A stretch of 64,000 nt of DNA from Coleofasciculus chthonoplastes F2-STO-03 (GCA_040222015.1 JAVJWO010000193.1:1-64000), one strand, 5' to 3'; positions 15,024 through 40,937 are shown, counted from the stretch's first letter. Translations and numbers: made by a program. The notes: generated from the sequence alone by a model not told the origin.

Positions 15024-17945
15024 TTAGAGTCTAGTCATTTCACAGAGTTTAAGATAATTCAGTGCTGCTCTATCGTGCCAATTAATTTCTAAAATCTCTT
15101 GAAATATGCTAAATGCGACATCAATTTTATTTTGATTAAAAGTGACAATTCCCTTTTCAAAGCTAGTTTTTGTTTGTTCTTTTAATTGAATAATTGAATC
15201 CGGTTCTGCATCAAACACTTCAAAAACTGGCACCAGATGTTTTTTGCCTTTAACCTGCACCTGACCGATAAATCGATAGTGATACTGACTTTGATCCGCT
15301 AAACAAAATAAAGTATAACCACTAATTAAAATTGATGCCCCATAGACTTTGGTCAAATCTTCTAAGCGTGACGCTAGGTTAACCGTATCAGAAATTACTG
15401 TAGTTTCCATGCGCTGCTGTTCCCCAATGGTTCCTAACATCAAACTACCTGTATTTAAGCCAATGCCAATAGTAATTGAAGGATACCCGGCTTTTTCGCG
15501 ATCGCGATTATAGCATGTCACTTGTTTCTGGATTTCAATCGCTGCTTTTAAGCCATCATCGGCGGTGGCGGGAAACAGCGCCATGATTGCGTCACCAATG
15601 TATTTATCAATAAACCCCTGATGCTTACGGATAATTGGTCCAACTTGTTTTAAATAAGAATTGAGAAAGTTAAAATTCTCCTGGGGAGACATACTCTCCG
15701 ACAGCGTGGTAAAGTTGCGAATATCCGCAAACATAATCGACATCTCCTGCTGAACCTGATCCCCCAACCGTACATCCACGATACTTTCATACCCCAAAAA
15801 GCGCAGAAATTCCTGGGGAATAAAGCGCCCGTAAGCCCTATTAATTTTCGACAGATAAAGATGGGTTTTAATCCGGGCAATCAATTCATGTTTAGAAATT
15901 GGTTTCGTTAAATAATCATTCGCCCCCACACTCAAACCTTCCACCAAATCCGAGACTTGCTCCTTCGCCGTCAACATGATAATTGGCATTTCAGTCGCCG
16001 GGAATCGTTGGCGGATTTTTTGGCACACTTCGTAGCCCGACATTTTGGGCATCATAATATCCAGAATCACCAAATCCGGGATGAAGCCCCGCTCAATTTT
16101 GGCTAAAGCCTCCATACCATTAGTTGCTTGTACAATGGTGTAGTTTTGGACAGACAAATGATTAGCAACCACTTGCAAATTAATCGGTTCGTCATCTACG
16201 ACTAAAATCGTGAATTCCCCAGTTTTAGGAACCTGTGGCAAAGATTCGCTGGGGAATAGACCGCTATAGTCCCGCACTTTGGTGATTTCCGTACTGAGTT
16301 CTGATCCAGGTTCAATCGGTTGCGAACTGATAGAAAGCATGAAAATAAATCGTGAACCTTGACCCAACTCTGACTCAACGCGAATGGTTCCGCCGTGGAG
16401 TTCAATCAGTTGTTTGGTAATACTTAGTCCTAATCCAGTACCCCTGGAGGGACGGGAAACAGAGGCGTCAAGTTGCTCAAAGGATTTAAAAATATCCTCG
16501 AATTTATCTGGGGCAATACCAATCCCTGTATCCGCCACCGTCACTTCTGCCATATTCTGCTTCTGGGTTGCTGACACCGTAACTGACCCAGATTCAGTAA
16601 ACTTAATCGCATTTCCAACCAGATTGTACATGATTTGTTGCAACCGATTCTCGTCGCCATCGATTCCGGGGAAATCTTCGGGTATCTCATTTTTCAAGTC
16701 TAGAGCTTTGCCGCTAATCAGGGGGCGAGACAGGGTAAGCACGACTTCAGTGATTTGGCGAAAATCCACCGATTTGCGGTGTAATTCGATATCGTGGTTT
16801 TTCAGTTTGGCGAAATCTAAAATATCATTAATTAGACTGTGCAGGCGCTTCCCACTAGAAACAACCATTGCCAGATTCGTTATTTGCACTGGAGAAAGAG
16901 TACCCGCCGCCCCATCGATGAGGGATTCAGTAATACCAATAATGCCATTCAGGGGAGTCCGTAGTTCGTGGGAGGTGTTGGCTAAAAACTCATCTTTGAG
17001 TTGATCTAGGCGCTGCAACGCCGTATTCTGTTGTTCTAAGGTTTGGGTAAACTGAATCCGTTCCGCTTCAGCTTGTTTGTGAGGAGTGATATCTTGAAAA
17101 GCGGCAATAGCATAGATAACATTACCTTGGTGATCAAAAATGGGAGTTGCCCAGACCTCCAACGGGATAATCTTATCGCCCTGATGGATTTCCATGTCAT
17201 CAACCGTTGACTGTTCACCCCGAAGCGCCCGTAAAATTGGGTCGCGATGACTGGGATAAACTTGTTCTGTTCCCGCCAGATAAACTTGATAAATTTTAGC
17301 CAGTTGTTCGGATGGGTTTTTGGATACCACTCCTTTCCCCAGTAACTCCTGTCCTATCTGGTTAACATAGTAGGGTTGACCATTGACATCAATGACAAAT
17401 AAACCCACGGGTACAGCTTCCAGAAATTGCGCCAACTGTCTCTCACTCGCCCGCAGCGCCTCTTGGACTCGCTGGCGCTCAATCACTTCTTGGCGTAAAT
17501 TTTCTAATAAGTCGGCTTGTGCCTGTTGTGCCAAATATTCCTGATGTTGCGCGGCTTTGAGCTGTTGCACATGGTTTAGGGTTTTATGGGTGGTAATCTC
17601 TAAATCGCGGAAATCAATGGGTTTGGTGAGGAAATCAAAGGCGCCCAGATTCATGGCTTTGCGGATATTTTCCATATCCCCATACGCAGAAAGAATTACA
17701 GCTTTAGTGGTGGGATAATTTTGGGCGAGGTGCGTCAGTAAGATTAACCCATCCATTTCGGGCATATTAATATCGGTTAAAACCATATCAATATCCGGTT
17801 GGGCGTGCAGCGTTTCTAAGGCGTCTTTACCATTACGGGCAAAAATAAACTGGAGTTCCTGACGCCGAATTTTTTTTCTAAACTTCTGGCGAATTAGGAG
17901 TGCTAAATCAGGTTCATCATCGACAACCAGTATTTTTGCTGGCAT
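15024..17945 (-). CDS. Hybrid REC-PAS-HisKA-HATPase-REC-adenylate/guanylate cyclase
   Basis: [19 protein letters not shown]-box, [16 protein letters not shown], second REC (LDIMMP), and class III cyclase motifs FADIRNFT / DKYIGDAIMA / [10 protein letters not shown]. Confidence 0.93.
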   Translation of the reverse strand: MPAKILVVDDEPDLALLIRQKFRKKIRRQELQFIFARNGKDALETLHAQPDIDMVLTDINMPEMDGLILLTHLAQNYPTTKAVILSAYGDMENIRKAMNLGAFDFLTKPIDFRDLEITTHKTLNHVQQLKAAQHQEYLAQQAQADLLENLRQEVIERQRVQEALRASERQLAQFLEAVPVGLFVIDVNGQPYYVNQIGQELLGKGVVSKNPSEQLAKIYQVYLAGTEQVYPSHRDPILRALRGEQSTVDDMEIHQGDKIIPLEVWATPIFDHQGNVIYAIAAFQDITPHKQAEAERIQFTQTLEQQNTALQRLDQLKDEFLANTSHELRTPLNGIIGITESLIDGAAGTLSPVQITNLAMVVSSGKRLHSLINDILDFAKLKNHDIELHRKSVDFRQITEVVLTLSRPLISGKALDLKNEIPEDFPGIDGDENRLQQIMYNLVGNAIKFTESGSVTVSATQKQNMAEVTVADTGIGIAPDKFEDIFKSFEQLDASVSRPSRGTGLGLSITKQLIELHGGTIRVESELGQGSRFIFMLSISSQPIEPGSELSTEITKVRDYSGLFPSESLPQVPKTGEFTILVVDDEPINLQVVANHLSVQNYTIVQATNGMEALAKIERGFIPDLVILDIMMPKMSGYEVCQKIRQRFPATEMPIIMLTAKEQVSDLVEGLSVGANDYLTKPISKHELIARIKTHLYLSKINRAYGRFIPQEFLRFLGYESIVDVRLGDQVQQEMSIMFADIRNFTTLSESMSPQENFNFLNSYLKQVGPIIRKHQGFIDKYIGDAIMALFPATADDGLKAAIEIQKQVTCYNRDREKAGYPSITIGIGLNTGSLMLGTIGEQQRMETTVISDTVNLASRLEDLTKVYGASILISGYTLFCLADQSQYHYRFIGQVQVKGKKHLVPVFEVFDAEPDSIIQLKEQTKTSFEKGIVTFNQNKIDVAFSIFQEILEINWHDRAALNYLKLCEMTRL

Positions 17946-18050
17946 TGTTTTTACCTGATAAGGATGGACTGTAGAGACGCGCCATGGCGCGTCTGGGGGG
18001 AGATGGGGGAGATGGGGAAGATGGGGAAGTTAACTCAAAATTCTACCTTA

Positions 18051-18157
18051 CCTATTCCCTATTCCCTATTCCCTGTTCCCTGTTCCCTATTCCCTGTTCC
18101 CTATTCTCTGACAAATGACCAATGACAAATGACCAATGACAAATGACAAATAACCAA
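18051..18157. repeat. Adjacent heptamer tandem repeats (CCTATTC/CCTGTTC and TGACAAA/TGACCAA)
   Basis: Read directly; intergenic, abutting the stop at 18158. A GATGGGGRA repeat also lies at ~18002-18029. Confidence 0.9.
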
Positions 18158-19342
18158 TCACTGCTGTTTAAGAATAAGTAAGGTAATATCATCATGAACT
18201 TTCTGGTTTCCAATATGCTGCCACACTTGGTCAATAACTGCCTGTTTAATCTCACAGACTGACTTGTGCCAGTTGTTGCTTAAGACGTGACACAGCCGTT
18301 CTAGTCCATATTGCACCCCATTCATATCTTCGGCTTCAGTAATCCCATCGGTATAGAGGACAACTCCATCACCGGGATACAACTGTACAGTTGCTTCCGC
18401 CACAAAGTCGGCAATCGCCTCTGCCAAACCAATCGGGAACCCCAAATCAATCGTATCAATTCGCTCAATCTTCCCCTCAGAGCGTAGCACAATCAGTTGT
18501 TCATGTTGTCCACTCACCGTTAGAGTCCCCTGATGATAGTCGATTAAGACGAGGCTTAAGTTCTTGTCGGAGCGCATCCGTTGTAGGTTGTGGTAAATCG
18601 TTTGGTTGAGGGTACTTAAAAAGTTAACGGTGTTGGTCTCATTATTCACCAGCAATGTCCGCACCGCCGTTTGTACCATCAGCATGAGGACACCACTGGC
18701 TAACCCATGACCGGTGATATCGCCGATGCCAATTTTCACCCTGCCATTGTGTTGCAGTACGTCGTAATAGTCTCCCCCGACTTCATCGGCTGGTTGCATA
18801 TACCCCGCGATATCGAGTCCCTGAATTTGACTTAGTTCTGTCTCTGTGGGCAACAGCATCTGTTGCAGTCGTCGGGTAATATCGAGTTCGGTGCTGAGGC
18901 GGAGGTTTTCGGCTTCTAAACGCTTGAGATAGTTTTCTTGTGCTAACGCTTGTTTGATTTGCTGGACATGGTTTAGGGTTTTGTAGGTGGTAATTTCTAA
19001 GTCTTGAAAATCAATCGGTTTAGTGAGAAAGTCAAATGCCCCTAAGTTCATCGCCGCTCGAATATTATCCATATCTCCATAAGCGGACAGGATTACAGTT
19101 TTAACCCCTGGATAGTCCGCTGCCAGTTTCATCAGCAAAGCTAACCCATCCATTTGGGGCATATTAATATCGGTTAAAACCATATCAATATCGGAATCAG
19201 CCTGTAGCTTTTCTAGGGCGTCCACACCATTACAGGCAAAAAGAAACTGGAGTTCTTTTTGGCGAATCTTTTTTCTAAATTTTTGACAGATTAGGGGTTC
19301 TATGTCGGGTTCATCATCGACAACCAGTATTTTAGCTGGCAT
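18158..19342 (-). CDS. Response regulator-SpoIIE/PP2C phosphatase (RsbU-like)
   Basis: N-terminal REC, then EVGGDYYD, GDITGHG, LYTDGITEA and DDITL PP2C motifs. Confidence 0.93.
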   Translation of the reverse strand: MPAKILVVDDEPDIEPLICQKFRKKIRQKELQFLFACNGVDALEKLQADSDIDMVLTDINMPQMDGLALLMKLAADYPGVKTVILSAYGDMDNIRAAMNLGAFDFLTKPIDFQDLEITTYKTLNHVQQIKQALAQENYLKRLEAENLRLSTELDITRRLQQMLLPTETELSQIQGLDIAGYMQPADEVGGDYYDVLQHNGRVKIGIGDITGHGLASGVLMLMVQTAVRTLLVNNETNTVNFLSTLNQTIYHNLQRMRSDKNLSLVLIDYHQGTLTVSGQHEQLIVLRSEGKIERIDTIDLGFPIGLAEAIADFVAEATVQLYPGDGVVLYTDGITEAEDMNGVQYGLERLCHVLSNNWHKSVCEIKQAVIDQVWQHIGNQKVHDDITLLILKQQ

Positions 19343-19372: not shown

Positions 19373-19750
19373 TTATAAATTAAATATTTTTTCTTTGAGT
19401 TGGTCAAAGTCAACGGGTTTATGAATATAATCATCGGCTCCGTATTCTTGGGAAATGCGATAGTTTTCGTCGTCGCCGTAAGCCGTAATCATAAAAACTT
19501 TTAAGTTGGGAAATTTTATTTTGATTGTTTTAAGTAATTCTAAGCCGTTTATCTCCGGCATATTAATATCTGAAAGAATCAAGACAACACAATTTTCTTT
19601 TTTACTTTCCATTTCCAGATAGTAGAGGGCTTCCTTGGCTGAGAAAGCAAAGTGAAATTCAATTTTGCCTTGTCTAATCTCTTTTCTAAAGCGTTGTCGA
19701 AACAGCAACAAAACATCTTTTTCATCATCAACTACCATGACTTTCATCAT
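19373..19750 (-). CDS. Single-domain response regulator
   Basis: VVDDE, LSDINMP, MITAYG and HKP motifs. Confidence 0.92.
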   Translation of the reverse strand: MMKVMVVDDEKDVLLLFRQRFRKEIRQGKIEFHFAFSAKEALYYLEMESKKENCVVLILSDINMPEINGLELLKTIKIKFPNLKVFMITAYGDDENYRISQEYGADDYIHKPVDFDQLKEKIFNL

Positions 19751-19967
19751 TCTTTCCTCTCAATTCATCGGGAGTGACATAAGCTGTTCGGCATTTAAAC
19801 CTTAATGTCAAGAATTGCAAAATTCTTGTCTGTAGTAAAGGGCAACCTAGTTAATTATAGGGCGACCCGAGCCGATTGAGTGGATTCTAGTTGTTCGTTG
19901 GTACAGCGGGTCGCCCCTACAGTACACCGTTCAAGACGCGCCATGGCTAGACTTATCTTACTTTTGG

Positions 19968-20187: not shown

Positions 20188-23100
20188 TTATCGGGGCAAA
20201 ATCAGCTTAAACTCGGTATACTCGCCCAATTCGGTTGCTACCTGAATCTCCCCTTGATGCTCTCCCACAATGATATCGTGACTAATGGATAATCCCAACC
20301 CTGTTCCTTGACCTGTGGGTTTGGTGGTAAAGAAGGGATTGAATATTTTATCTCGGATGTCTGCTGGGATGCCATTGCCATTATCTCGGACACGGATTTC
20401 GACTTTATCGCCTAGATTTTTGGTAGTAACGGAGAGTGTGGGGGTAAAGTCTGTGCCAACAGCTTTTTTCTTGTCATGGGCAGCATAACAGGCATTATTG
20501 ATGATATTGAGAAAGACGCGACTGATGTTCTGCGGCACAATATTAACTTGACCAATAGTGGGGTCATAGTGGGTTTCAATCGTGATGTTAAATGAGGAGT
20601 CTTTGGCACGCATACCGTGATATGCCAGATTAACATATTCGGCGAGAAGTGCATTAATGTCGGTGAGTTGGTGTTCGTTCCCTTGACCCCGTGAATGCAT
20701 CAGCATCCCGCGCACAATATTGTCGGCGCGTTTGCCATGTTCGTTGATTTTTTTGACGTTTTGTCCTAAGTCACTGAGTATTTCTTCGATGTATTCTGTG
20801 CTTTCCGGGTCTAATCGTTCTTTTTGACTGTCGAGTTCTGCTAAGAGTTCTTCGGTTAACTCAGCCGACAGTTCGGCGAAGTTATTGACAAAGTTTAAGG
20901 GATTTTTAATTTCATGGGCAATCCCGGCGGTTAATGCACCGAGGGAGGCGAGTTTCTCTTGGGCGATAATTTGGTCTTGGGTGGCTTTGAGTTTTTTCAG
21001 GGTAGCGGAGAGTTCCTGATTTTTCTCTTGGAGTTCCTGGGTTCTTTCATCGACTTTAAGTTCTAGGGTACGGCTATAATCCTCTAATTGTTGGTAGAGA
21101 CGGGAGTTTTCAATTGAGATAGAAATTTGAGCAGATAAAACTCTTAACAGTTCAACCCGTTCTTGAGTAAATGCGCCCGTTGTCAAATTATTTTCAAGAT
21201 AAAGAATACCACTAAGTCTACCTTGATTCAGCAAAGGAGTACATAAAATTGACTTAGGCTTGACCGTCCAAATATAAGGGTCACGAATAAATTGTCCTTC
21301 ATGGGTGGCATCATTTAAAACCACGGTTTCATGACTATGGATAACATAGTTAATAATACCAGCAGAGAGCAGAGGTTTTTCAGAATCAGAGATTGCTGAT
21401 TGTATCGGAATCGATTGCTGCATCGTCACATCTTCAGAGTCAACGACTCCTTCGGCTTCGATAACCCAATTGCCTTCTTGCTCCAAAATCAGAAATCCTT
21501 TTTGAGCGCCAGCATTTTCAATAACTATTTTCATTAAGGTTTGCAGTAGGCGTCCTAAAACAATTTCGCTGGAAATGCTTTGACTAGCTTTCAAAACAGT
21601 AACTAAATCTAGGGCTTCACTTGAACCACTACCGGTTGATTCAGTGGTATTAGACATTGCCTCTAGGGTCGATTTAGATTTTATCGGTAGAAACTGAGAA
21701 TACTCGTCTAGAAATAGTTCAACTTTACGTATAGCCCCCCAAAGTTGATATCCATGGTGAGCTTTTGCCAGATAAAGTTTAGCAAACTCTTCTTTACCTT
21801 GATTTAGCCAAAATTTAGCTGCCAATTCATTCGCTAAGGCTTCATTTTGGATAAATTTATTTTCTTTCGCCTTCGCAATAGCTTGATCATACAATTTTAT
21901 CGCGCCCAGATCTTGTCCAGTAATTCGAGCCATCTCAGCTTGGACTAATAGATACTTGTGCAGTGAGTTTTCTGGGCAGTTTTCAGCCCAAATCCTGAGT
22001 TTCTGTTGATTCAACTCTAATTGACGCCAGTATTTCTTTTGCTGAGATTTTGAGGCGGACACATAAACCGCTGCTAAACTCAGAGAATAATAAAAGTTAT
22101 ATTCTACCAACTGATTATGACCCACTGCATAAACTAATAAATTTTCCGCTTCATGAGAACATTGAAGGGCTTCATTATAGTGTTCATAAAGATAGAGTGC
22201 TTGGGATTTGAGAATCTGATGGGTACAGATGGCTAGAAAGCTTTGATGAGACTGACAAACTTGAAAATATTGCTCTTGGTTGCTAATTGCCTCTGTGGTA
22301 AAATCCCATTGATTAGCAGTCAGTCCACTCAGATTCAAAATAACAGCTTGCGCTCCCAACAAAATATCAATTGACCAGTTATTTTCTGTTTTGGCATTGA
22401 ACTGTAAAAAATTAGGAATATCGGCGGCTAAGATTTCCATGTTTTTACCTTGAAAAAATTGATTCAGGAGTTTATACATGAGAATGTAACCAGCCCATTG
22501 CAATTCTCCCGACTCTAAACCTGCCTGAAATCCGGAATCTAGAATTGCATCTGCCCAACTGAGATGATTGACCCAAATTCCAATTTCTGTGCTAACAATT
22601 AAAGCAATTTTGCATCGTTGGCTTAAATTGTTGGTTTCCACGGTTAGGTTTTGGGCTAACATGGCAAACTCATATCCTAATCGATACTCACCGCGAGAGA
22701 CTAGGACAAGACCATGATTAGCAATCCCAATTGGTGACTCAGAGGAAAAACCATATTTTAGAGATAGATTAGATGATTTTAAGTTAACGATGGGAAAAAG
22801 GTCTTGGTCAGCGACAAAGGTAGGCGCGGCTAAATTGGCTAGCAATTTGATGGCTACTTTTTTTTCTGGATCAGTGACTTCTCCTTGAGTAATTAGTGAA
22901 GCCACCTGACGATCGCCTAAATTATTTTTGGCTTCATTAAGTTCAGCAATAAGATATTGCTGAACATTATCTTGAGGTAAATCAATACCAATTAATGATA
23001 ACGCTTTGCGACCTATTTGAATAGCTTCTAAACATTTAGCGCTTAGAGTATATTGAACAATTAATAAGCGATAAAGTTCAGCTTTTTCTAAGATAGTTTT

Positions 23101-26694: not shown

Positions 26695-26713
26695 CTGATT
26701 TAAGCTGAGGCGT

Positions 26714-29056: not shown

Positions 29057-29389
29057 TCACGTTCCTCGAATGATACCAAATAACCCATCTCGATCGAGGA
29101 GTGAAGCCAGTTGTTCCGGATTTAATTCTCCTAATCTCTCTGATTCTCCTAATCTCTCTGGTGGATTAGGAATTCCAAATACACCTTCTCCTTGCTCAAG
29201 GATAACAACACAATGAGGCTGAACAGGTTCGTTTTCTCTACAGGCATACGTCTCAATTGTCTCCTTTGGATCTTGTCTCAATAAATCGAGGAACTCTGGG
29301 GTTTGCCAAGCAAAGGCAAGAACATTAGCCCAGGCTGTCTGTAACTCTTCTGGATATCTTCTGGTGTAATTTACTGGATCATAAGGCAT
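29057..29389 (-). CDS. Putative RiPP precursor with NHLP-like (nitrile hydratase-type) leader
   Basis: WANVLAFAWQTPEFLDLLRQDPKETIE resembles the NHLP-clan A-W-x-D-x-x-F...L-L-x-D-P motif and is followed by IPNPP. GGAG RBS; lies directly upstream of YcaO. Confidence 0.7.
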   Translation of the reverse strand: MPYDPVNYTRRYPEELQTAWANVLAFAWQTPEFLDLLRQDPKETIETYACRENEPVQPHCVVILEQGEGVFGIPNPPERLGESERLGELNPEQLASLLDRDGLFGIIRGT

Positions 29390-29595: not shown

Positions 29596-31062
29596 ATGTC
29601 CGTTGATTTAACCAAAACTAACATTGAAGTCAAAGAGTATCAATTGCTACTGGAGGATTTACAAGGCAATATTTTGCAAGGGTACGAACAGGACTACGCC
29701 GTCCAGATTTTCCTAAAATTTGAGTCTGATGCTCAGGCGACTCGACAATGGATTAGGGACTTTGCCGCAGAATTTGTGACATCGGCGCAGCATCAGTTAA
29801 ATGAGCCGCAAAAATATAGCCAAGATTCTTCTCAAAACTTCCCTAAACTCTGGGCTAATTTTTTCCTATCAGCTCATGGATATCAAGCGCTGGGATTTGA
29901 GTTAAAAGGTAAGCGACTACAGTTCCCAAGTTGGACTTTTCTGGCGGGAATGAAAGCGTTCAAACCGATTTTAAGTGATCCGCCAATTGACCAATGGCAA
30001 GATGGATTTCGGGGAGATATTGATGCATTAATTTTACTAGCGGCTGATCAGTCAGAGTATTTACAGCAGCAGGCAAAAACGGTGATGAAAGCGGTTAGTC
30101 ATGTCGCCTGTATTGTCAATACGGAAGTGGGACATATTCTCAGGAATGCTCAGATTCAGCCGAATGGCAAAGGACAAACCATTGAACACTTTGGTTTCAG
30201 AGATGGTATCAGCCAGCCGTTATTTTTTAAACAGGATATTGAGCAAAGACAACAGCAGGGGAATGACCAATGGGATGCTTGTGCGCCATTAGAATTGGTT
30301 CTGGTTAAAGATCCATTTGGTCAGGGAGAAAATAGCTATGGGAGCTATTGTGTTTACCGCAAACTCAAACAAGATGTACAAGGCTTTCGCCAAAGAGAAA
30401 AACAATTGGTACAAAAACTGGGATTGACCGGAAACGATGCTGAACGTGCTGGTGCTTTGGTAATCGGGCGGTTTAGAGATGGAACGCCAATTACGCTTTC
30501 TAACTCTGGACAAGGAGATACTACTATTGTTAATAATTTTAATTATGCTGATGATACAGAAGGCACAAAATGTCCGTTTCATGCTCACATTCGTAAGACG
30601 AATCCTAGAGGTGATAGAGGAGATAGTGTAGAGTCTTTAGAAGAACAGCGCCAACATCGAATTGTGCGTCGAGCAATTCCCTATGGTGGAACGTCGCCGG
30701 AACAACAAACCTTAACCTCCGCAATCTCACGTTTACGGGAACACTTAACCTCTTTACCGCACGAAGCTCTACGGGTAGAGAACAATGAGGGGGTTGGCTT
30801 ACTGTTTTTGTGTTTTCAACGGGATATATTTAATCAGTTTATGTTTATGCAAAAATCCTGGGTCAACCAAAAAAACTTTGTCAAGTATGACACAGGTCTT
30901 GATCCAGTCGCTGGTCAGGGAAAACAGTTGGATGGAGGACAAAAGTGGTCAAAGGAGTGGGGACAAGAAGAAAAAGTATCCTTTGAATTTAATAATTTTG
31001 TCAGGATGCAAGGGGGTGAATTCTTTTTTGCTCCTAGCATCAGTTTTTTGGCAAACATCTAG
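29596..31062 (+). CDS. DyP-type (dye-decolourising) heme peroxidase
   Basis: DLQGNIL, EHFGFRDGISQP (GxxDG), CPFHAHIRKTNPR, IVRRAIPYG and GLLFLCFQ. Confidence 0.92.
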   Translation: MSVDLTKTNIEVKEYQLLLEDLQGNILQGYEQDYAVQIFLKFESDAQATRQWIRDFAAEFVTSAQHQLNEPQKYSQDSSQNFPKLWANFFLSAHGYQALGFELKGKRLQFPSWTFLAGMKAFKPILSDPPIDQWQDGFRGDIDALILLAADQSEYLQQQAKTVMKAVSHVACIVNTEVGHILRNAQIQPNGKGQTIEHFGFRDGISQPLFFKQDIEQRQQQGNDQWDACAPLELVLVKDPFGQGENSYGSYCVYRKLKQDVQGFRQREKQLVQKLGLTGNDAERAGALVIGRFRDGTPITLSNSGQGDTTIVNNFNYADDTEGTKCPFHAHIRKTNPRGDRGDSVESLEEQRQHRIVRRAIPYGGTSPEQQTLTSAISRLREHLTSLPHEALRVENNEGVGLLFLCFQRDIFNQFMFMQKSWVNQKNFVKYDTGLDPVAGQGKQLDGGQKWSKEWGQEEKVSFEFNNFVRMQGGEFFFAPSISFLANI

Positions 31063-31134: not shown

Positions 31135-31385
31135 CTACAATCCATAAAAACGAACCAGGCTGGGATAGAGAAATGATATATCAACTCCCATCTGCATCAT
31201 TGCCCTAACTTGAGATTCTGAGTCAAAACCATTGGGTATGGCAGATGTGGGGTGATTGCGTCCAATATTTCTTACGGCATAATTGTGAATATCATTAGAC
31301 ATTTTGCTGTAAATTTTTTCACCCTGAATCGTTATATTGGGTGACGTTAGGGCAAACCGCTTTAACCCTGGTTCTAGGTACTGTC
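31135..31385 (-). pseudogene. Amidohydrolase N-terminal fragment (paralog of 25603-26694)
   Basis: QYLEP...TIQGEKIYSKMS...DSESQVRAMMQMGVDISFLYPS aligns with EYLEP...TVQGQTIVNKLS...DPESQVKAIQRMGVDMAFLYPT. Confidence 0.8.
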
Positions 31386-31590
31386 CACCGCGCGATCGCA
31401 CCGCCGACTTATCGCCGCAAATACGGGAATAGTCAAATCACTGGTAATATCCAGCACCCAGAGTTCCCGATGCAGGCTTTGGTAATACTCGTTTAACTGA
31501 TGAAAATAGGGGTCATCAAAACTCTCTAAATCAACCTTGGGGCGTTGAATCCGGTTATACCACCATAACGCCACTCCTGACGAGTTTCAT
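31374..31590 (-). pseudogene. YcaO internal fragment (paralog of 26714-28957)
   Basis: VALWWYNRIQRPKVDLESFDDPYF...YQSLHRELWVLDITSDLTIPVFAAIS aligns with VALWWYNRLKKPGVDLSSFEQPYF...YQSLHRHLWVLDVSSDLPIPAFVAVS. Confidence 0.85.
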
Positions 31591-31926
31591 ATTGACTGGC
31601 GCTAAAATTCATACAGGTATTCGGATGAATCGCGCGATCGCACAGTGGTGCAAGCAGGAGGAACATACCTCACAACATAAGGCTTGGCGTCAAATCCTCT
31701 CTGGCTTATTGAGTGCGACAGTAGAGAAGCTGTTGATGACGAACCTTAACACCCTAGAACCTTCAGCCTCTCCAGTCACCAAAGCCATGGTGCAAAATGC
31801 GATTGAGCCAGGAAAATCCTTTGATTGAACGACCGCCAAAACAAGACAGGGGTGCGATCGCTTTATTCGCCCCTGGCTTGGCTGCATATCTTCTTGTCGC
31901 CAATGCGATCGCGTCTGACTCAGACT

Positions 31927-34900
31927 TTAACCGTTTAACCATTGACAGCGCTGAATATAGAAACAAGCCGCTTGATCCTGTGGGTTGATTTGGCTGATTT
32001 CTGTAAAAAATTGAAACGCTAATGATAATTTTCCCTGGTGATATAGTATAATTGCCTCTTCAAATTTTTGCTTCGTTTGCTGCTTTAACCGTCGGCTATC
32101 AACCGGATCAGTCTCAAACACCTCAAAGATAGGCACTAAATCCTTTTTACCTTTGACCTGAACTTGACCCATAAACCGATACTCATACTGGTTGGAATCA
32201 TCCAAGTCAAATAATGTATGTCCACTCACCAGAATCGCCGCCCCATAGACTTTAGTTAAATCTTCCAGCCGGGATGCTAGGTTCACCGTATCAGAAATCA
32301 CTGTACTTTCCATCCGTTGTTTTTCCCCAATCGTTCCTAGCATCAAACTCCCCGTATGCACGCCAATACCAATGGTTACTGGCGGATATCCAGCGTTTTG
32401 GCGATCGCGATTATATCGGGCTACCTCCTGTTGCATCTCAATCGCGGCTTGCAAGGCGTCATCAGGGGTATGGGGAAACAATGCCATCACTGCATCGCCA
32501 ATATATTTATCAATAAAACCCTGATGCTGGCGAATCACCGGACCGACTCGTTTTAAATACGCATTAATAAAGTTAAAATTTTCCTTGGGAGACATTTGTT
32601 CCGACAAGGTGGTAAAGTTACGAATATCCGCAAACAACACCGACATCTCCTGCTGCACCTGATCCCCTAGCTGGACATCAACAATACTTTCACGTCCCAG
32701 AAAGCGGAGGAATTCATGGGGAACAAAGCGACTATAGGCAGTATTGATTTTTGATAACCGCAGATGGGTTTTAATCCGTGCTAGCAATTCATTTTTCAGC
32801 ACCGGTTTGGTGACATAATCATTAGCCCCCACTTCTAACCCAGCCACCAAATCAGACACCTGATTTTTCGCCGTTAACATCACAATCGGCATTTCTGACG
32901 CCGAAAACTGCTGGCGAATTGCGCGGCAAACCTGATAACCTGACATTTTGGGCATCATCAGATCCAGGATAATTAAATCGGGTCTTAATCCCTTTTGAAT
33001 CTGATCTAAGGTTTCCATCCCATTCGTGGCGCGAATAATCCGATAGTTTTGGACAGAAAGGTGATTAGCAACGACTTGCAGATTAATCGGTTCATCATCA
33101 ACGACTAAAATGGTTAATTTTTGATTAGACGCGATCGTTGTCTCTTCCGGTAATGATGTCGGAAGTTGGATCGGGTTTGGTCGCACTTTGCTAATCAATT
33201 GGCTGATATTTAATGTCGGTTCTGGGGAGTTAGCACTAATGGGTAAGGTAAAGATAAATCGAGATCCCTGTCCCAATTCAGACTCAACCCGAATTGTACC
33301 ACCATGGAGTTCAACTAATTGTTTAGTAATACTCAAACCCAAACCCGTACCACTGTAAGATCGGGAGAGGGAGGTATCAACCTGTTCAAAGGATTTGAAA
33401 ATAGCCTCAAATTTATTTTCTTGAATCCCGATTCCTGTGTCCGCCACGGTGACTTCAATCTGGTTATTTCTTACCTGTGCGGATACGGTAACGAACCCGG
33501 ATTCAGTAAATTTAATTGCATTCCCCACTAAGTTATACATAATTTGTTGCAAGCGATTCTCATCCCCATCAACAGCAGATAAATTAGCTGGAATCTGGTT
33601 TTGCAGATGCAAGGATTTACCCATAACTAAGGGTTGACAAAGGGTAAGAACGACCTCAACAATTTGCTGAAAATCGACGGATGTACGTTGCAGTTGGATA
33701 TCTTGGTTTTTCAGTTTAGAGAAATCCAGGAGATCATTAACCAGATTGGAGAGGCGCTTTCCACTAGAGACAATCATCGCCAAGTTCGCAATTTGCATCT
33801 CAGACAGCGCCCCGGCTGCACCATCGATCAAGGATTCAGCAATACCAATAATCCCGTTCAGAGGCGTGCGGAGTTCGTGGGAGGTATTGGCGAGAAATTC
33901 GTCCTTGAGTTGGTCGAGGCGTTGCAGGGCGGCGTTTTTGGCTTCTAGTTCCTGAGTAAACTGGAGGCGATCGCGTTCAGCTTGTTTGCGTTGGGTGATA
34001 TCTTGAAACGCCGCGATCGCATAAATAATATTCCCCTGATCATCATAAATGGGTGTCCCCCAAGCTTCTAAGGGAACAATCCGATCCGGTTGATGAACTT
34101 CTACATCATCAATGATTGTTTTTTCTCCCCGCAATGCCCGAACTAAGGGTAAGTTTTCTGTGGGATATAACTTATCCGTCCCCGCGATATAAACCTGATA
34201 GGCTTGGGAGAGATTCTCAATTAATCCTTCTTTAGGAGCATCTAAACCATGTAATTCTAACCCCGTTTGATTCATATTAATCCATTTTCCCATGGCGTCA
34301 ATCACGCCAATTCCGACGGGAATCGCTTCTAGAATTTGGTTAAGTCTTCTCTCATTTTCCCGCAGCAGTACCGTTTCTTGTTCCTGCGCCCTAATTCTCC
34401 ACTGCACATAGCCGAAAACTGTACTGACTAAAGCCAAAACATACAAGGTGTAAGCCCATCCGGTTTTCCAGGGAGGCGGCGAAATAATCAGCTTAATCGA
34501 TGTCCCTTGTTCATTCCAAACCCCGTCATTATTTGACCCTTTTATTCTAAAGATGTACGTCCCACCATCGAGGTTAGTATAGGTGGCATAGCGTCTTGTT
34601 CCAGCCTGAATCCAGTCATGATCAAAGCCTTCTAATTTGTAGGCGTACTTATTTTTAGCTGGATTGCTATAGTCAAGGGCAGCAAATTCAAAGCCAAAGA
34701 AGTTCTCTTTGTAGGATAAGTGTAGTTTTTGAGTTTCTGAAATAGCGGTATCTAGTTTGACACTCTGGTTAAATTTCTGGAAATCTGTGATCACAATGGG
34801 CGGAATATGGGGATTATCCTTCACTTGCTCTGGATCAAAAAACGTGAATCCGTTGTCGCTGCCAAAAAACAGTTCATTGTTTGAGCTTTTGTAATAGGCT

Positions 34901-36927
34901 AACGTGTTACATTGATTACTCGCCAACCCATCATCAACATCGTAGTTTCTAATGGTTTCCGTTTGGGGATTAATTTTTGATAATCCCTTGACACTACTTA
35001 CCCAGAGATTTCCAAAGTCATCAGTTATAATAGCACAGAGAAAATCACTCTTCAGACCGTCTTTCTCGGTGTAGTGGGTAAAATTTTTATGTTCAGGATC
35101 AAATTTATTCAGTCCGGCTTCCGTGGCAATCCAAAGGGTTCCGGATTGGTCTTCCGATATTCCGACTACTCGATTACTACTCAAGCTATTTGGTTGATTC
35201 GGGTCATGTTGGTAATGGATAAATGTACCAGTGGCGCGATCAAATTGGTTGAGTCCTCCCCCATAGGTAGCAATCCAGAATCGATTCAAAGTGTCTTCAT
35301 AAATGGCTAAAATCTGATTTACGCTCAAGCTATTGGATTCATTCGGTTGATGAACCCAATGGGTAAATTTACCCGTCGTGGGATCGAATTGGTTGAGTCC
35401 ACCCCCAAATGTGCCAATCCATAAAGTTCCAGAACGGTCTTCATAAATGACTAGCACAGTATTATCACTGAGGCTATTTGAGTCATTTGGATCGTGGATA
35501 TAATGGACAAATTTTTCTGTGCGAGGGTCAAATCGATTTAATCCCTCATCTCCGCCGATCCAGAATTGACCCGAACTGTCTTGATAAATTGACCAGATAC
35601 TTTCACCCCTCAAGCTGTTGTAATCATTTGGGTTGTTGGTGTAATGGGTCAATTTCCCCGTGGTGCGATTCAGTTTATAAAGACCGCCATTATTCATACC
35701 TACCCAGACGAGACCCAAGTGGTCTTCATAAACTGCCCAAACCCCATCACCCTGTAAGCCATTGGGATTATCCGGTTCAATTTTGTAAGATTTAAATTTT
35801 TGTTTGGCTGGGTCAAATCGATTCACCCCATTTAACCAAGTACCAATCCAGATAGCACCTGTTGGATCAGCATAGATGGATAAAACATTATCACCACTTA
35901 AACTATTAGGTTGGGTGGGATTGTTGGAGTAATGCGTCCATTGTTCTCGCCGGGAATCAAGCAGGTCAACACCTTTACCCGTATAACTAGCATTCCATGT
36001 TCCTGAGCCAATCCAGAGCTGACCCCAACTGTCTTCAGTAATCGCACTTACGTTATCACAACTTAAACTGTTGGGATTATTGGGGTCATGAAGATAGTGA
36101 GTAAATTCTTGAGTGTCTGGGTGAAACTGATTCAGTCCACCCCCATTCGTACCAATCCATAAGACACCAGAAGCATCTTCATAAATTGCACTGATTCGAT
36201 TATCACTCAAGCTATTTGGATTATTCGGTTCATGGAGATAGTGAGTAAATTCTTGAGTGTCTGGGTGAAACTGATTAAGTCCACCTCCATTCGTGCCAAT
36301 CCATAAAACCCCCGCACTATCTTCATAAATGGTACTGATTCGATTATCACTCAAGCTATTCGGATTATTCGGTTCATGGAGATAGTGAGTAAATTCTTGA
36401 GTGTCTGGATTAAACTGATTAAGTCCACCCCCATCGGTGCCAATCCACAAGACACCAGAAGCATCTTCATAAATGGTACTGATTCGATTATCACTTAAGC
36501 TATTAAGATCATTGGGTTCATGAATATAATGAGTAAATTGCTCAGTTAAACGATCAAATCGGTTCAGTCCACCAGTTTGAGTCCCTATCCAGAGAAACCC
36601 TGATGAATCTTCGTAGAGAGATGAGACCCAATTATCCGACAGTGAATTCGGCTGTTCCGGCTCGTGTTTGTAAATTGTAAAATTGTATCCATCGTACTTA
36701 TTCACACCTTCTTGGGTACAAAACCAAATAAATCCTTTCCTGTCTTGTAAAACACAGTTTATCCCCACTAACCCATTGTCAGGCGGCAGGTGATCAAACG
36801 TCAGGTTCACAGCTTGAGCATACCCATGACTTGGGCAAATTAGTATAATTAACAAACTCAGCAGGAGAATTTGAAGCCCTCGGAGAATTTTGCTGCGGAT
36901 TTGGGAACCTAGGCTTCGGATGTCCAT
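31927..36927 (-). CDS. Membrane sensor: beta-propeller (two-component regulator propeller) + YYY + TM + PAS-HisKA-HATPase-REC-adenylate cyclase
   Basis: Signal peptide, repeats of [30 protein letters not shown]...[28 protein letters not shown] and cyclase motifs. Confidence 0.93.
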
Positions 36928-37074: not shown

Positions 37075-38358
37075 TCAGGTTTGATATTCATAGCCATCAG
37101 CTTTGTGGATATTTGCTAAATATTTGGGATGGACATCAAAACGCTTATTTGGCAGCAGTAGCATGAAACTTGGTCTAAATCTGATAGCGATTCGTCCTGT
37201 ATGTTTACCTGTATATTTACCTTTTGGGATATCGGCTTTAACCATATTGCCCGTCGTAAATCCCATAAAAAATTTAGATTTTGGGGCATGACGTGCAGGA
37301 AAACCATATTTGTCAGGACGGCATCGTTGTCTAGTTCCGTGTCCTTTTGCTACAACTTTTAGAGGCTTAATTCCTCTAATTAATAACTGCTCAGGGGTGG
37401 ATGCTCCCACACAAGAAGCATCAGTCCAGTGTTGCTTTTCAATCCCTCTGGTTTTACGGTTAAACTTGGTGCGACCTCCTGAACCTACTTCTACGGGTAA
37501 GCCAGTTGATTGCAGTCTTCTGAATAACTCCCAGCGAGTAGCATTAACTGCAGCCGCATCTTTAAGAGGTGCTAAGAGGTGAGCTAGGACTCCCTTGAGG
37601 ATGTCAGGCTTCTTTTTCAGGAATTCTTCAACGGGTCTGTTCCCTTTAGCTTGGTTGCAAGAATGACAACTAAGACTCATATTACTGACTCGGTTTGAGC
37701 CACCCTTACTTTTTGCCAGAATGTGTTCAATCTCGAACGGAACATTTTTAGCGCCACAGTAAGCACATTTTCTGTCCCATTTGTGAAGTAAATACTCTTT
37801 AACTTCAAAACCCAATAACTCACCCCTTTGGTACTCAACCCCGCTAATTTCAGGATTTTGCATTTGCTGAAGGTCAAACCTTACCAGTTCTTGAGAGATG
37901 GCTGAAATCGGACAGAGTTCTCTAATCCGTCGTACCCAAGTTTCAATGTTGGCAATCCGACTCTCCAGCGATGGTGGTAGCCATCCGGTTTTACGGGTTC
38001 TGTTTAAGAAACGAGGCTGGCGGTAACGGGTTTTACGGTTACGGCGTCCCCTTCTTAATGACCTGCGAGCTAAGAGGGAATTTTTAATTTGTTGCCCTCG
38101 GTGTGAGATTTCCATGGCGTTTGTTACTCGCCCCGTTTCTTCTTGAACGATGGCAAATCCAGTTACTTTACTGCCAGGATCAATTTTGATCCGATGTGGG
38201 TGCGTGACTGATTCTTCAACGGTTCTGTCTTGCAGGACAATAGTAAATGGATAGCGCTTGAATACTTTAGCCCTCCCTTTGTTCAGTAATTCTCTTGCTC
38301 TCGCTGGATGCGTTGGGTCAAGAGGTTGTAGGTCTTTGTCTAGAACGAAAACTCGCAT
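37075..38358 (-). CDS. iscB: RNA-guided endonuclease IscB (likely start ATG 38358, not 38427)
   Basis: VFVLD...PLDPTHPARAR PLMP-type domain, IDPGS RuvC-I, RRSLRRGRR bridge helix, ELVRFD RuvC-II, CAYC...EHI...GGSN...N...CHSCN HNH and HWTDA RuvC-III. Confidence 0.95.
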   Translation of the reverse strand: MRVFVLDKDLQPLDPTHPARARELLNKGRAKVFKRYPFTIVLQDRTVEESVTHPHRIKIDPGSKVTGFAIVQEETGRVTNAMEISHRGQQIKNSLLARRSLRRGRRNRKTRYRQPRFLNRTRKTGWLPPSLESRIANIETWVRRIRELCPISAISQELVRFDLQQMQNPEISGVEYQRGELLGFEVKEYLLHKWDRKCAYCGAKNVPFEIEHILAKSKGGSNRVSNMSLSCHSCNQAKGNRPVEEFLKKKPDILKGVLAHLLAPLKDAAAVNATRWELFRRLQSTGLPVEVGSGGRTKFNRKTRGIEKQHWTDASCVGASTPEQLLIRGIKPLKVVAKGHGTRQRCRPDKYGFPARHAPKSKFFMGFTTGNMVKADIPKGKYTGKHTGRIAIRFRPSFMLLLPNKRFDVHPKYLANIHKADGYEYQT

Positions 38359-38361
38359 TAC

Positions 38362-38631
38362 TTTGAGACTCTCATTACTGGTTAAGTTTGCCTCGCCTTT
38401 GATATCTTGGCTTTTTACACTCAGCACACTGCTCGGAATACCCGTCCTTGCTGGTTAATGCTGAACAACAGAGCTACAAACTGGCTTAAGTTGGCTAGAC
38501 ACGTATTCGTAGGTGTTATGACCGAGATATCGATTACCCTCGAAAAGCCTTTTATCGAGGGAGGCTGGTCAACGTAGGGCTTTTTCAAGCCCCCGTTATA
38601 CCGCCTAAGCGGTTAACGGCGGGTCGTTGAC
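38362..38631 (-). ncRNA. omega-RNA (HEARO-like) scaffold of IscB
   Basis: About 270 nt upstream of iscB. Begins GTCAAC...GTTGACCAG (paired), contains internal hairpins such as CCCTCGATAAAAGGCTTTTCGAGGG, and ends near GGCGAGGCAAAC. Confidence 0.8.
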
Positions 38632-39010: not shown

Positions 39011-39073
39011 ATTGCTATAGAGTCTCAGGAAGTAGTATTGGGTTAACTGGTGGGTAAGTAGAGCTGAACAGGT

Positions 39074-39292
39074 CTACACACAGGGAACTTCAGTATCATC
39101 GCCAAACTGTCGGGCGCGTTCATCAACTAGCAAGCGAGTAAAATTATCTTCCCCCCCTTGTTTGATCAACTCTTTCTGCTCATCTGTCAAATCATACTCA
39201 TTGAGTACAGAATCAGGATCACTACCGAACGTTTGCAGTTTGTTGGGATCTTGCGCTAAATCGGCTAACAGATTAAATAAAGCAGATGCCAT
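39074..39292 (-). CDS. Small LigA-like / SonA-like helical-bundle protein; putative RiPP precursor 1
   Basis: LFNLLADLAQDPNKLQTFGSDPDSVLNEYDLTDEQKELIKQG pattern, AGGAG RBS, and clear paralogy to 40713-40937. Confidence 0.75.
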   Translation of the reverse strand: MASALFNLLADLAQDPNKLQTFGSDPDSVLNEYDLTDEQKELIKQGGEDNFTRLLVDERARQFGDDTEVPCV

Positions 39293-39412: not shown

Positions 39413-40552
39413 CTAGGATTGACGTATTTCATTCCCCAAATACACAGACATGATTTCTCGACTCATCTTACCGTAGTCACCGTCGTACCGGGACACATCA
39501 TAGCAACCCAAGGGATTCTCGACTAAGTTAATCCGGCATTTCTCACAATAGCTGCAAGGCTGATCTGGGCTATCTTTTCCTTGGGCAAATTGTTGCACCA
39601 AGTCAGGGTTAGCAATGAGGGCGCGGGCTAACGTGACGCCATCGCAATATCCACCATGAATCACTTGACGAATATAGGTCGCCGTTTGAAACCCTCCTGT
39701 ACACAACACAGGGATATGAACCGACTGTTTAATAGAATGGCTTCTATCAATATGGTCTCCCTTAATATCCAAAGGGAAATGGTTGTTCGCCGCTTGGGGA
39801 TAGGGGACTTTGCTCCCCAGATGTAGCGCATCCGCTCCAGCTTGTTCAATCCACTGACACAGTTGTACAGAATTCTCGCGAGTATCCAACGCCCCAACTT
39901 TGACCTGGACATGAAAATCCTGTCCCACCTGTTGACGGATCATTTTCAGGGTATCCAGTAAAAAGCGCGATCGCTCTTTTAATGAACCCCCATACTCATC
40001 CTCTCGCTGATTGACCGTAGGACTAAGAAACTGACCGATCAGATTCACCGGAACTCTAGTTCCCCCTGATTCCAAATCCCCTAAAAGTCGTCCCGTTCCT
40101 CCACTCGTTCCATCCACTTCCACGCCGTCTAATCCCGCTTCCCGCGCCCGTCTAGTTGCATCAGCAAACCATTGCATCGTTTCTTGAATTTGCTCAAGGG
40201 TCATCCTTTGACTCAGATTACCTAAGTGAGAACCACCGTAGCTAATTTGTAGGATATACTTACAGTCCCATTTGTGGACCGCCTCAGCCACCTGTCGCCA
40301 AAATGGAATCGTGCGATCGCTCTCAATCGTGGCACAGTGAGGAGCCATGCGTCCTTGGTTATGGATGGGTGCAACTCCGGAAAGGATCGCTCCCACACCC
40401 CCCTGAGCAAACCGTTCTTCCCATCGGAGACGTGCAGGAGTCCCTAATCCATCAGGATCATCAAAATTTCCGTAAGTATTAGCGCGAAAGATACGGTTTT
40501 TTACCGTAAGATTCCGAAATTTCAACGGTTCAAAGATAATATCATTGACCAT
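39413..40552 (-). CDS. NADH:flavin oxidoreductase (old yellow enzyme family), atypical active site
   Basis: IFEPL...LTVKNRIFRA, AGLDGVEV, QFLSP..NQREDEYGGSL..R.RF, ARALIANPDL and C-terminal CSYCEKC. Confidence 0.88.
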   Translation of the reverse strand: MVNDIIFEPLKFRNLTVKNRIFRANTYGNFDDPDGLGTPARLRWEERFAQGGVGAILSGVAPIHNQGRMAPHCATIESDRTIPFWRQVAEAVHKWDCKYILQISYGGSHLGNLSQRMTLEQIQETMQWFADATRRAREAGLDGVEVDGTSGGTGRLLGDLESGGTRVPVNLIGQFLSPTVNQREDEYGGSLKERSRFLLDTLKMIRQQVGQDFHVQVKVGALDTRENSVQLCQWIEQAGADALHLGSKVPYPQAANNHFPLDIKGDHIDRSHSIKQSVHIPVLCTGGFQTATYIRQVIHGGYCDGVTLARALIANPDLVQQFAQGKDSPDQPCSYCEKCRINLVENPLGCYDVSRYDGDYGKMSREIMSVYLGNEIRQS

Positions 40553-40567
40553 GAGCAGATGCGTGAT

Positions 40568-40690
40568 AAGCTGTTCGGCATTTAAACCTTAATGTCAATA
40601 ATAACGAAATCCTTGTTGTGTGAGCATCTTGCTCACTGCATTGAGCATCTTGCTCGCTACCCATTCCCAATTTAAATGCATGACAGCTTA
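40568..40690. mobile_element. Miniature inverted-repeat element TAAGCTGTTCGGCATTTAAA...TTTAAATGCATGACAGCTTA
   Basis: Terminal inverted repeats and internal GAGCATCTTGCTC palindromes. Partial copies at 19780 and ~43585-43630. Confidence 0.7.
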
Positions 40691-40712
40691 CCTTGATGAG
40701 ATAAGAATTAAA

Positions 40713-40937
40713 CTACATAAACGAATTGCCCAGTCGTTTAGCTCGTTCTGCCAGCATCAGTTTAATATAGTTCTCAGTCCCCCCAACTCGGATTAAATCT
40801 TTCTGCTCTTCGGTCAAGTCATACTCCTCAATTAGAGCGTCTTTTTGATTCAGATATTTATCAAATATCTCTGGGTCTTCTGCCATATCCACCAATAGCT
40901 TAAATACAGCCGATCCGGGCATATTGGTTTGCTCCAT
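40713..40937 (-). CDS. Small LigA-like / SonA-like protein; putative RiPP precursor 2 (start ATG 40937)
   Basis: AAGGAGG RBS before ATG 40937; SAVFKLLVDMAEDP...EEYDLTEEQKDLIRVGG...ERAKRLG parallels the 39074-39292 protein. Confidence 0.75.
   Translation of the reverse strand: MEQTNMPGSAVFKLLVDMAEDPEIFDKYLNQKDALIEEYDLTEEQKDLIRVGGTENYIKLMLAERAKRLGNSFM

Follow-up and report, generated by a model that had tools for sequence, protein, structure and literature searches.

The window analysed here is a 64,000-nucleotide stretch of the genome of Coleofasciculus chthonoplastes F2-STO-03 (GCA_040222015.1 JAVJWO010000193.1:1-64000), and this work concerns a unit of four adjacent genes on its minus strand. 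These encode a 110-aa precursor protein (29057..29389), a fused RRE-E1-YcaO azoline cyclodehydratase (26714..28957), an enzyme annotated as amidohydrolase_2 (25603..26694) and an HstK-like kinase of 1795 aa (20188..25575), and are separated by gaps of 99, 19 and 27 bp, respectively. A scan of positions 1-47300 for domain families covered 25 open reading frames, and the genes, their order, strands and gaps were all as stated in an earlier reading made from the DNA alone (the sequence-only reading). The comparisons below indicate that the locus is real and widespread and represents an uncharacterised variant of the NHLP/YcaO clusters with a linked kinase.

The precursor is predicted to adopt the fold of the nitrile hydratase (NHase) alpha subunit and to belong to the NHLP clan. 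A profile of 31 relatives matched NHase alpha at E 5e-9 and the NHLP leader structure 8TB1 at E 1e-4, and in the profile alignment the DGLFG of its C-terminal end, DGLFGIIRGT, was placed opposite the DSMIG that closes the hydratase fold. Only about five residues extend beyond the folded body, the last of them being Thr110, the predicted modified residue. The tail takes the form R-x-[S/T/C] in 27 of 30 relatives, and in the remaining three CC is followed by one final residue. This fold assignment rests on the profile search, since the AlphaFold model of the precursor was mediocre (predicted local distance difference test, pLDDT, 68) and a Foldseek search with it returned nothing at E 0.001. Against TIGR03795 (cut-off 41 bits) the precursor scored 12.7 bits and its relatives at most 19.3, and all precursor models missed it. 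No signal, membrane or hydrophobic segment was found in the precursor, the highest 19-residue hydropathy being 0.74. An 18-bp tandem duplication (ERLGES) at 29125-29160 is missing in P0001 and in the contigs of runs X2 and X6, and is therefore taken as a strain polymorphism, in a loop.

Precursor genes are in tandem in eight related loci, and forms of ~190-200 aa occur in two. Profiles made from the fetched loci join the subtype found in the window to longer precursors of up to 416 aa, with tails such as PYIPLSCT. Among 81 distinct precursors, 80 have S, T or C within the last three residues and 71 end in one of these, as compared with a background of 13%, a tally that is partly circular because the precursor profiles were seeded with such tails.

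The YcaO protein exceeded the cut-offs of TIGR03604 (261.7 bits, cut-off 219.25) and TIGR03882 (154.9 bits, cut-off 36.9) and was close to MusD and LynD (E 1e-208). Like cyclodehydratases of the LynD/MusD/TruD type it has a proline-rich C-terminus, with the tail NPYPIFF. The third protein had been called an amidohydrolase in the sequence-only reading, and this label has to be replaced. LynB7, an enzyme of lyngbyapeptin biosynthesis, converts thiazoline-4-carboxylates to thiazoles with Fe2+ and O2 and binds its metals through D11, H13, H197, E252, D320, H323 and D325 (PMC10127204). All seven ligands are present at near-identical positions in the window protein (D11, H13, H196, E251, D320, H323 and D325) and are invariant in 10 of 10 aligned sequences. 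The N-terminal D-x-H, the C-terminal D-x-P-H-x-D/E and the inner His and Glu of the BarH/LynB7 type are thus all in place; of the 81 locus homologues, all have the C-terminal motif and 76 have D-[ASG]-D-x-H. Motifs of this type are described as marks of dinuclear oxygenases (PMC13154177, 2026), and D-x-P-H-x-D/E is reported there to be absent from the characterised hydrolases of the fold. The nearest solved structure is the diiron monooxygenase PtmU3 (E 1e-43), and relatives at 68-71% identity bear the source name 'BarH protein'. By homology, the enzyme is therefore a BarH/LynB7-type diiron oxidative decarboxylase.

A gene for a 'thiazoline synthase' adjoins ~69% of the dominant BarH-like clade, for which the natural product is stated to be not known, and E0U9F9, a member with a YcaO neighbour, decarboxylates thiazoline-4-carboxylate in vitro (PMC13154177). 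A cyclisable C-terminus, a cyclodehydratase and an enzyme dependent on a free azoline carboxylate can be combined into a single pathway, and by analogy with these enzymes a terminal azole chemistry on the precursor is highly probable. Given that an oxidative decarboxylase would act on a free C-terminus, no SagB-type dehydrogenase, follower peptide or protease is required. None of the 25 open reading frames encodes a SagB, PatA/G or C39 exporter protein, as the sequence-only reading had noted. Elsewhere in the genome, SagB-type domains are found on contigs C40, C72 and C200, an NHLM-type C39 exporter on C77, and a cyanobactin cluster on C40. The last (C40:46227-60212) includes PatA-, PatD-, PatE- and PatG-like genes and two PatF-like genes, and its precursor contains repeated cores. 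Since that cluster has a PatE-like precursor of its own, its proteases are no longer considered to act on the 110-aa precursor.

The kinase consists, by Pfam, of a Ser/Thr kinase, an AAA_16 NTPase, a TPR-like solenoid, a GAF domain and a His kinase. As in HstK-type proteins, the Ser/Thr kinase, GAF and His kinase parts are in one chain, and their catalytic motifs were located; no signal or membrane segment was found in it. Against TIGR03903 it scored 141.7 bits, far from the cut-off of 705.75, with the best stretch at residues 299-739 and no cyclase domain in the chain. Residues 735-1335 (21571..23373) were modelled by AlphaFold2 as an all-helical solenoid with a mean pLDDT of 91, and the Foldseek matches were mostly of the TPR type, several of them solved with C-terminal peptides, the best TM-score being 0.46. 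At the sequence level, a profile search with the TPR block detected no relative of solved structure, and Atlas matches were leads only (0.90 or below). Within the solenoid, residues 801-1200 form a hypervariable block, which is the predicted reader of the modified tail. A complex prediction with TPR residues 735-1299 and the unmodified precursor gave a score of 0.00, which counts neither way.

The sequence-only reading could have been refuted by a lack of linkage between YcaO and the kinase in other genomes. A synteny check found the unit conserved beside this type of kinase across cyanobacteria. In an even sample of 400 genomes of the phylum, the decarboxylase was detected at E 1e-100 in 24, and the surrounding DNA was read. 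A kinase on the same strand follows the decarboxylase in 23 of the 24; YcaO is present in 21 (one a fragment), the precursor in 22 (one beyond the kinase) and all three in 20. The chance expectation of a linked kinase, estimated from the four such kinases in this genome, is ~0.001, and the linkage is more than chance. In a second, similarity-ranked set, which overlaps the even sample and comprises the best 79 loci of 536 relatives from a partial GTDB scan, YcaO was found in 69, a downstream kinase in 55 and the precursor in 64. When only the 48 of these loci with at least 5 kb on both sides are counted, the figures are 47, 39 and 42, respectively, with all three in 35. Radical SAM/SPASM proteins (10 loci), ThcOx (14) and DyP (12) are variable extras among the 79, and no protease family recurs among the neighbours.

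The C-terminal output of the kinase is not fixed. As judged by Pfam, 43 complete linked kinases end in a His kinase (13), PP2C (8) or AAA_35 (22), so that the output module appears to be freely exchanged while the N-terminal part stays linked to the locus. The sequence-only reading had placed the peptide in an HstK-cyclic AMP (cAMP) circuit. Since only 13 of 43 have a His kinase, signalling through it to cAMP is not a general feature. In this genome the kinase is followed on the minus strand by a stand-alone REC protein (19373..19750), a REC-PP2C (SpoIIE) phosphatase (18158..19342) and a REC-PAS-His kinase-REC-class III cyclase (15024..17945), at gaps of 437, 30 and 212 bp. All three, identified by Pfam, are native to the genus, at 93-98%, 91-95% (six congeners) and 86-90% identity to congeners, respectively. 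This trio was compared within the genus only, and there it follows in six of seven congeners with the locus, the contig of the seventh ending. The 437-bp gap contains a genome-wide repeat.

Most of the four-gene unit in this window has replaced a native allele. Identity of the window DNA to congeners is 84-97% on the two flanks and in two gene remnants, and 63-74% for the matches between ~21500 and 31100. The remnants, found by tblastn on the minus strand, are of a native YcaO allele (31383..31574; 95-97% DNA identity to YcaO of six congeners) and a native decarboxylase allele (31155..31434; 89-98% DNA identity to four congeners over 31155-31380). Both were missed by the sequence-only reading. 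Beside them, at 31634-31857, is a remnant of an Rpn-family putative transposase that is intact, at 90% DNA identity, in the congener G007. In 100-residue blocks the kinase is 22-77% identical to congeners up to residue 1500 and 87-97% beyond it, and the DNA of its gene switches from 39-75% to 84-100% near nt 4500, just past the GAF domain (codon ~1500, window ~21075). A low-identity block between native flanks and remnants argues that the native allele was replaced and that its YcaO and decarboxylase genes decayed. These boundaries indicate that the DyP-type peroxidase gene, which is divergent on the plus strand (29596..31062; TIGR01413 111 bits, cut-off 100.5), the precursor, YcaO and decarboxylase genes and kinase codons ~1-1500 arrived together, in one block, and became attached to the native His kinase, which makes the kinase a mosaic.

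The native layout is seen in the Coleofasciculus records L107 and L138. Congeners carry three further kinase alleles, with the switch near nt 3750. All four alleles of the genus have the same His-kinase end (90-97%), each being paired with a precursor and decarboxylase of its own; YcaO is common to two of them at 91-96% identity. The 12 loci with DyP comprise 11 of the 12 with the window precursor subtype and one decayed copy, and the sole locus of the subtype without DyP is cut by a contig end. A role for DyP in dityrosine cross-linking of the tail was set aside, since the single-precursor loci that have Phe at the position (the window, L074 and L075) retain DyP. The second DyP of the genome is a 680-aa fusion beside other large unannotated genes (C115:1488-8296).

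Precursor and kinase were then compared over 52 loci, precursor similarity being set against that of each part of the kinase. The set leaves out loci with a divergent kinase (L126, L135 and L145), those with no decarboxylase (L061 and L067), likely duplicates (L078 and L107), and any locus without a long kinase or without a same-strand precursor having S, T or C in the last three residues. Rank correlations with the precursor were 0.30-0.35 for the helical/TPR blocks, 0.29-0.31 for the NTPase, 0.17 for the kinase domain and 0.20 for GAF. As the loci are related, no P value is attached to these correlations. When only pairs whose kinase domains are at least 72% identical were considered, the precursor was similar in 76% of the 50 with a similar TPR block as against 6% of the 78 with a different one. 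The 28 pairs with the most similar precursors share the TPR block in 26 cases. These pair figures are descriptions and not tests, because the thresholds were chosen by the authors and the loci are related.

Individual loci illustrate the same pattern. The Nostoc loci L106, L112 and L125 have kept the decarboxylase (93-95%) and kinase residues 1-500 (85-94%) and 1201-1500 (87-96%), while the precursor (52-59%) and kinase residues 801-1200 (39-56%) have changed. In the Microcoleus loci L073 and L075, a decarboxylase at 97% is flanked by a precursor at 40% on one side and a TPR block at 21-37% on the other. The TPR blocks nearest to that of the window (63-69%, the next being 44%) belong to the two loci that have its nearest precursors. 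In the TPR tree, precursor tails are grouped across families, and five tandem-type loci from three families are united with a support of 99. Precursor and TPR block thus seem to change together while the parts between them stay 85-97% identical, as would be expected of a ligand and its receptor, and a functional pairing of the product with the TPR kinase is fairly probable.

The reading that we favour, at a probability of roughly 0.5, is that an intact azole-tipped protein would act inside the cell as an allele-specific ligand of the TPR solenoid of the downstream kinase. The sequence shows that the genes of the substrate, YcaO, diiron enzyme and kinase lie next to one another on the same strand and are conserved as a set. 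On the model of its homologues, YcaO with ATP would cyclise Thr110 onto Gly109 to give a methyloxazoline-4-carboxylate (-18.011 Da), which the diiron enzyme with Fe2+ and O2 would decarboxylate to a terminal 5-methyloxazole (-64.016 Da overall). The co-variation suggests that the capped tail would bind the TPR block at residues ~800-1200 and switch the NTPase, as ligands do in other STAND proteins. Gene order suggests that in this genus the His kinase would pass the signal to REC, REC-PP2C and the kinase-cyclase, and in other cyanobacteria a PP2C or AAA_35 output would be plugged in instead. Because substrate and reader are swapped as alleles, like the peptide dialects of quorum sensing, a strain-specific self-signal is favoured over a metabolic relay. 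The proposal of the sequence-only reading that the peptide is an intracellular ligand or regulator rather than a toxin gains support from the linkage, from the lack of an export signal or double-glycine motif and from the co-variation, while binding itself is what we infer.

Besides the circularity in the count of cyclisable ends, several observations weigh against this reading. A residue other than S, T or C ends ten of the 81 precursors; in seven of these it is Phe, which would need trimming or some other end chemistry. LynB7 and E0U9F9 were assayed on small thiazolines only, and not on a Thr methyloxazoline or a protein substrate. The loci with ThcOx often have no same-strand downstream kinase. 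The rank correlations over all 52 loci are modest, and in 12 of the 56 pairs that share a similar TPR block the precursors are dissimilar. In the congener G008 the precursor is 54-56% identical to that of the closest allele, and yet the TPR/middle region of the kinase is still 88-93% identical. Pairing could also be mimicked if two variable regions diverged fast, each for its own reason. Phe-ended precursors (PLTFF and PSTF, for example) occur in L090, L091, L117, L137, L146 and L079, and these loci retain the decarboxylase gene.

One alternative is that an unlinked housekeeping protease removes the azole-capped tail, which is then exported, or moves along the filament, as a short pheromone read by the same cytoplasmic TPR kinase, for which the Rap-Phr/RRNPP peptides of Firmicutes are the model. 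It would share the chemistry and the co-variation with the favoured reading, and the C39 exporter on C77 could be called on. The discordant pairs mentioned above mostly have similar tails on different bodies (PYIPVSSS, PYIPVTSS and PYIPATSS), so that the tail may be all that is read. Set against this, the pre-peptides of RRNPP systems are exported and carry a signal sequence, whereas the window precursor has neither a signal segment nor a double glycine, and GG or GA is found within the last 30 residues of 9 of the 81 precursors. With no recurrent protease, an ABC transporter at 8 of the 79 loci only, and large folded bodies of 90-416 aa retained, often as tandem pairs, a secreted pheromone is rather unlikely.

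A second alternative takes the locus for an ordinary cluster of a RiPP (ribosomally synthesised, post-translationally modified peptide) that makes a small azole metabolite, with the kinase regulating it or sensing something else, and explains the co-variation by block recombination. The variable tailoring enzymes agree with this, as does the swap of the whole block at once in this genome and the change of the precursor alone in G008. However, precursor and TPR block change in other loci around parts that remain 85-97% identical, a pattern that a single block swap cannot produce. The core would consist of a few residues only, and the output has been exchanged while the N-terminal part of the kinase stays linked. 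This explanation is unlikely. Further down the scale is a role in defence, in which the mini-protein would keep an NLR-like kinase inactive, or serve as a decoy, until attack by a phage or competitor triggers a response. An NTPase and TPR architecture with rapid allele turnover resembles that of immune receptors, and the patchy distribution (24 of 400 genomes) would also suit such a role. However, the PADLOC matches were to a generic Ser/Thr kinase domain only, with none on the other five proteins, and no nuclease, TIR or pore domain was present among the listed Pfam matches of the 43 kinase C-termini, so that this is quite improbable. Finally, the database annotation and the otherwise missing protease might suggest that the PF04909 enzyme is an amidohydrolase removing a leader or follower, like PurAH of bottromycin, with a product that keeps its azoline, but the dinuclear oxygenase motifs at both ends, the reported 14% identity of LynB7 to PurAH (PMC10127204) and the fact that nothing follows the cyclisable residue in the window precursor make this most improbable.

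Among known systems, the closest is NHLP-Burk (BMA_0021), of the two-chain thiazole/oxazole-modified microcin (TOMM) type, in which a cyclodehydratase and a large Ser/Thr kinase adjoin tandem or fused precursors with a Cys end, and a matching exporter is lacking (PMC2887384). Shared features are a precursor of ~110 aa with an NHase-alpha-like body, motif 1, P-x-x-P, a short suffix with a cyclisable end and no double-glycine motif, the adjacent fused cyclodehydratase and large Ser/Thr kinase, the lack of a matching exporter and, in relatives, the tandem or fused copies. In contrast, the window has a single precursor gene with a Thr end, its precursor and kinase fall below the TIGR03795 and TIGR03903 cut-offs, its kinase type ends in GAF with a His kinase, PP2C or AAA_35, and a BarH-type enzyme and DyP are present. 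The word 'amidohydrolase' does not appear in the portions of PMC2887384 covered here, and no receptor role is proposed in them; the portions of PMC4603692 (Cox et al.) covered repeat the description of the NHLP-Burk precursor and leave the kinase unmentioned.

The decarboxylase has the fold, ligands and motifs of LynB7, BarH, DolJ and the E0U9F9 clade (PMC10127204, PMC13154177); unlike it, LynB7, BarH and DolJ finish products of non-ribosomal peptide synthetases. Words for a precursor or kinase are absent from section 13 and the supplement text of PMC13154177, figures aside. The fused RRE-E1-YcaO protein is shared with the cyanobactin enzymes LynD, TruD and MusD, and an NHLP-type leader with proteusins such as nostatin A (PMC11583998). 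Clusters of these two kinds differ in their long cores and in the presence of an oxidase (nostatin A) or of PatA/G proteases (cyanobactins). PatA, PatG and a PatE-type precursor, which mark a cyanobactin cluster, are all absent from the locus, and 'kinase', 'amidohydrolase' and 'BarH' do not occur in the main text, as covered, of PMC11583998. HstK-type dual kinases (cited in PMC1262709) share the three domains named above, whereas 30 of the 43 linked proteins lack a His kinase; no ligand of the middle region is given in the part of PMC1262709 covered. Daptides are RiPPs whose C-terminus undergoes oxidative decarboxylation and is also acted on by a YcaO, but the enzymes differ, and decarboxylation and transamination come first, followed by a YcaO-formed imidazoline (PMC12338566). 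The YcaO-decarboxylase-kinase unit is not described in the covered portions of PMC12537861, PMC8429565, PMC1262709, PMC7159879, PMC11583998, PMC8939145 and PMC12338566. A literature search, from which subscription papers mostly fell outside, found no account of the precursor family, of a terminal azole on a protein or of the kinase pairing.

A TPR receptor and peptide alleles that vary together are familiar from the RRNPP systems (Rap-Phr, PlcR-PapR) and the agr dialects, whose peptides are exported. The candidate ligand here differs in being a folded protein without an export signal, with a predicted azole end and an NTPase-kinase as receptor.

Contigs lying on the precursor gene, with 0-4 differences, were obtained from four RNA libraries belonging to three studies, and one of them extends ~0.9 kb into ycaO. 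Coverage of the kinase, DyP or the downstream cascade was low, to which no weight is given. As the runs were picked by the precursor region, may include DNA and had no silent control, and a contig is not equivalent to one transcript, these contigs give a weak hint only of precursor and ycaO expression. Scans for promoters (31 sites, 33.5 in shuffles) and terminators (12 sites, 17.2 in shuffles) showed no excess. A repeat at 40565-40690 and 19779-19829 lies directly upstream of a flavin oxidoreductase gene and of REC, and has 247 matches in the genome; the resulting proposal of a 126-bp element as a common promoter of the two genes was dropped on account of these matches.

Upstream of the unit, all on the minus strand, are a beta-propeller sensor His kinase-REC-cyclase (31927..36927; Pfam), an IscB RNA-guided endonuclease gene (37075..38427; NF040563 460 bits, cut-off 175), which looks intact and is an unrelated insertion of a mobile element overlooked by the sequence-only reading, a 72-aa LigA-like protein ending in EVPCV (39074..39292; LigA E 7e-4, below cut-off), an Old-yellow-enzyme (OYE) flavin oxidoreductase (39413..40552; Pfam PF00724) and a 74-aa LigA-like paralogue, 44% identical to the first (40713..40937). 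An OYE paralogue lies among several uncharacterised, possibly heme-binding genes on C134:11600-20801. The LigA-like pair, OYE and propeller kinase had been counted as part of the system, from which they are now separated. The LigA-like/OYE/LigA-like trio occurs in one other genome of 51 in the family (G016, 76%), and neither it nor the arrangement of G007 is found at this position in G001, G002, G005 and G008. Being rare and absent at the position in congeners, the trio is therefore not part of the YcaO unit and belongs to a separate module.

In G007 (L051:14271-19901), a 71-aa LigA-like gene and a RiPP radical SAM C-methyltransferase gene (TIGR03975, 674 bits) precede the propeller kinase, of which the sensor half differs and the output half is >90% identical. 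Compared with it, the propeller kinase gene of the window shows 53-70% DNA identity over the first 2.25 kb and 83-97% after, so that its sensor part is also a mosaic. The top seven PDB matches of the 72-aa protein are LigA-domain/SonA chains, weak at E ~0.01, and this protein is a candidate for the folded RiPP precursor of the second module. In four distant loci (L189:7657-11330, L191:8174-11826, L194:82-3952 and L192:6061-8673) a LigA-like gene lies immediately upstream of a large kinase of the type found in the YcaO unit, and long helical/TPR-like genes with the LigA-fold mini-protein precede the Ser/Thr kinase-NTPase. A methyltransferase is present in three of the four, that of L189 being of the SonM type (E 2e-58 to SonM-type chains). 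Split borosins pair a SonM-type alpha-N-methyltransferase with a LigA-fold precursor, and in the window OYE takes its place. The gene content indicates that the LigA-like loci repeat the design of the YcaO unit, namely a folded mini-protein, a modifying enzyme and a large sensor, and the four distant loci look like its borosin version.

In a wider and more tentative view, which we put somewhat short of even odds, cyanobacterial STAND-TPR kinases would be receptors of azole-capped intracellular mini-proteins that convey allele-matched strain identity or a signal dependent on O2 and iron, and the borosin and radical SAM-LigA systems would be parallels. With this locus, the large HstK-type kinases found in filamentous cyanobacteria gain a candidate ligand, the YcaO-linked BarH clade, left without a product in 2026 (PMC13154177), gains a candidate natural substrate, and clusters of the NHLP-Burk type, known bioinformatically since 2010, gain a chemical and functional model. 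YcaO and the diiron enzyme would be a compact route to a terminal azole on a protein, and the natural allele sets of Nostoc permit cognate and non-cognate pairs to be compared. If the pairing is true, RiPP enzymes would here write intracellular identity tags and not secreted drugs.

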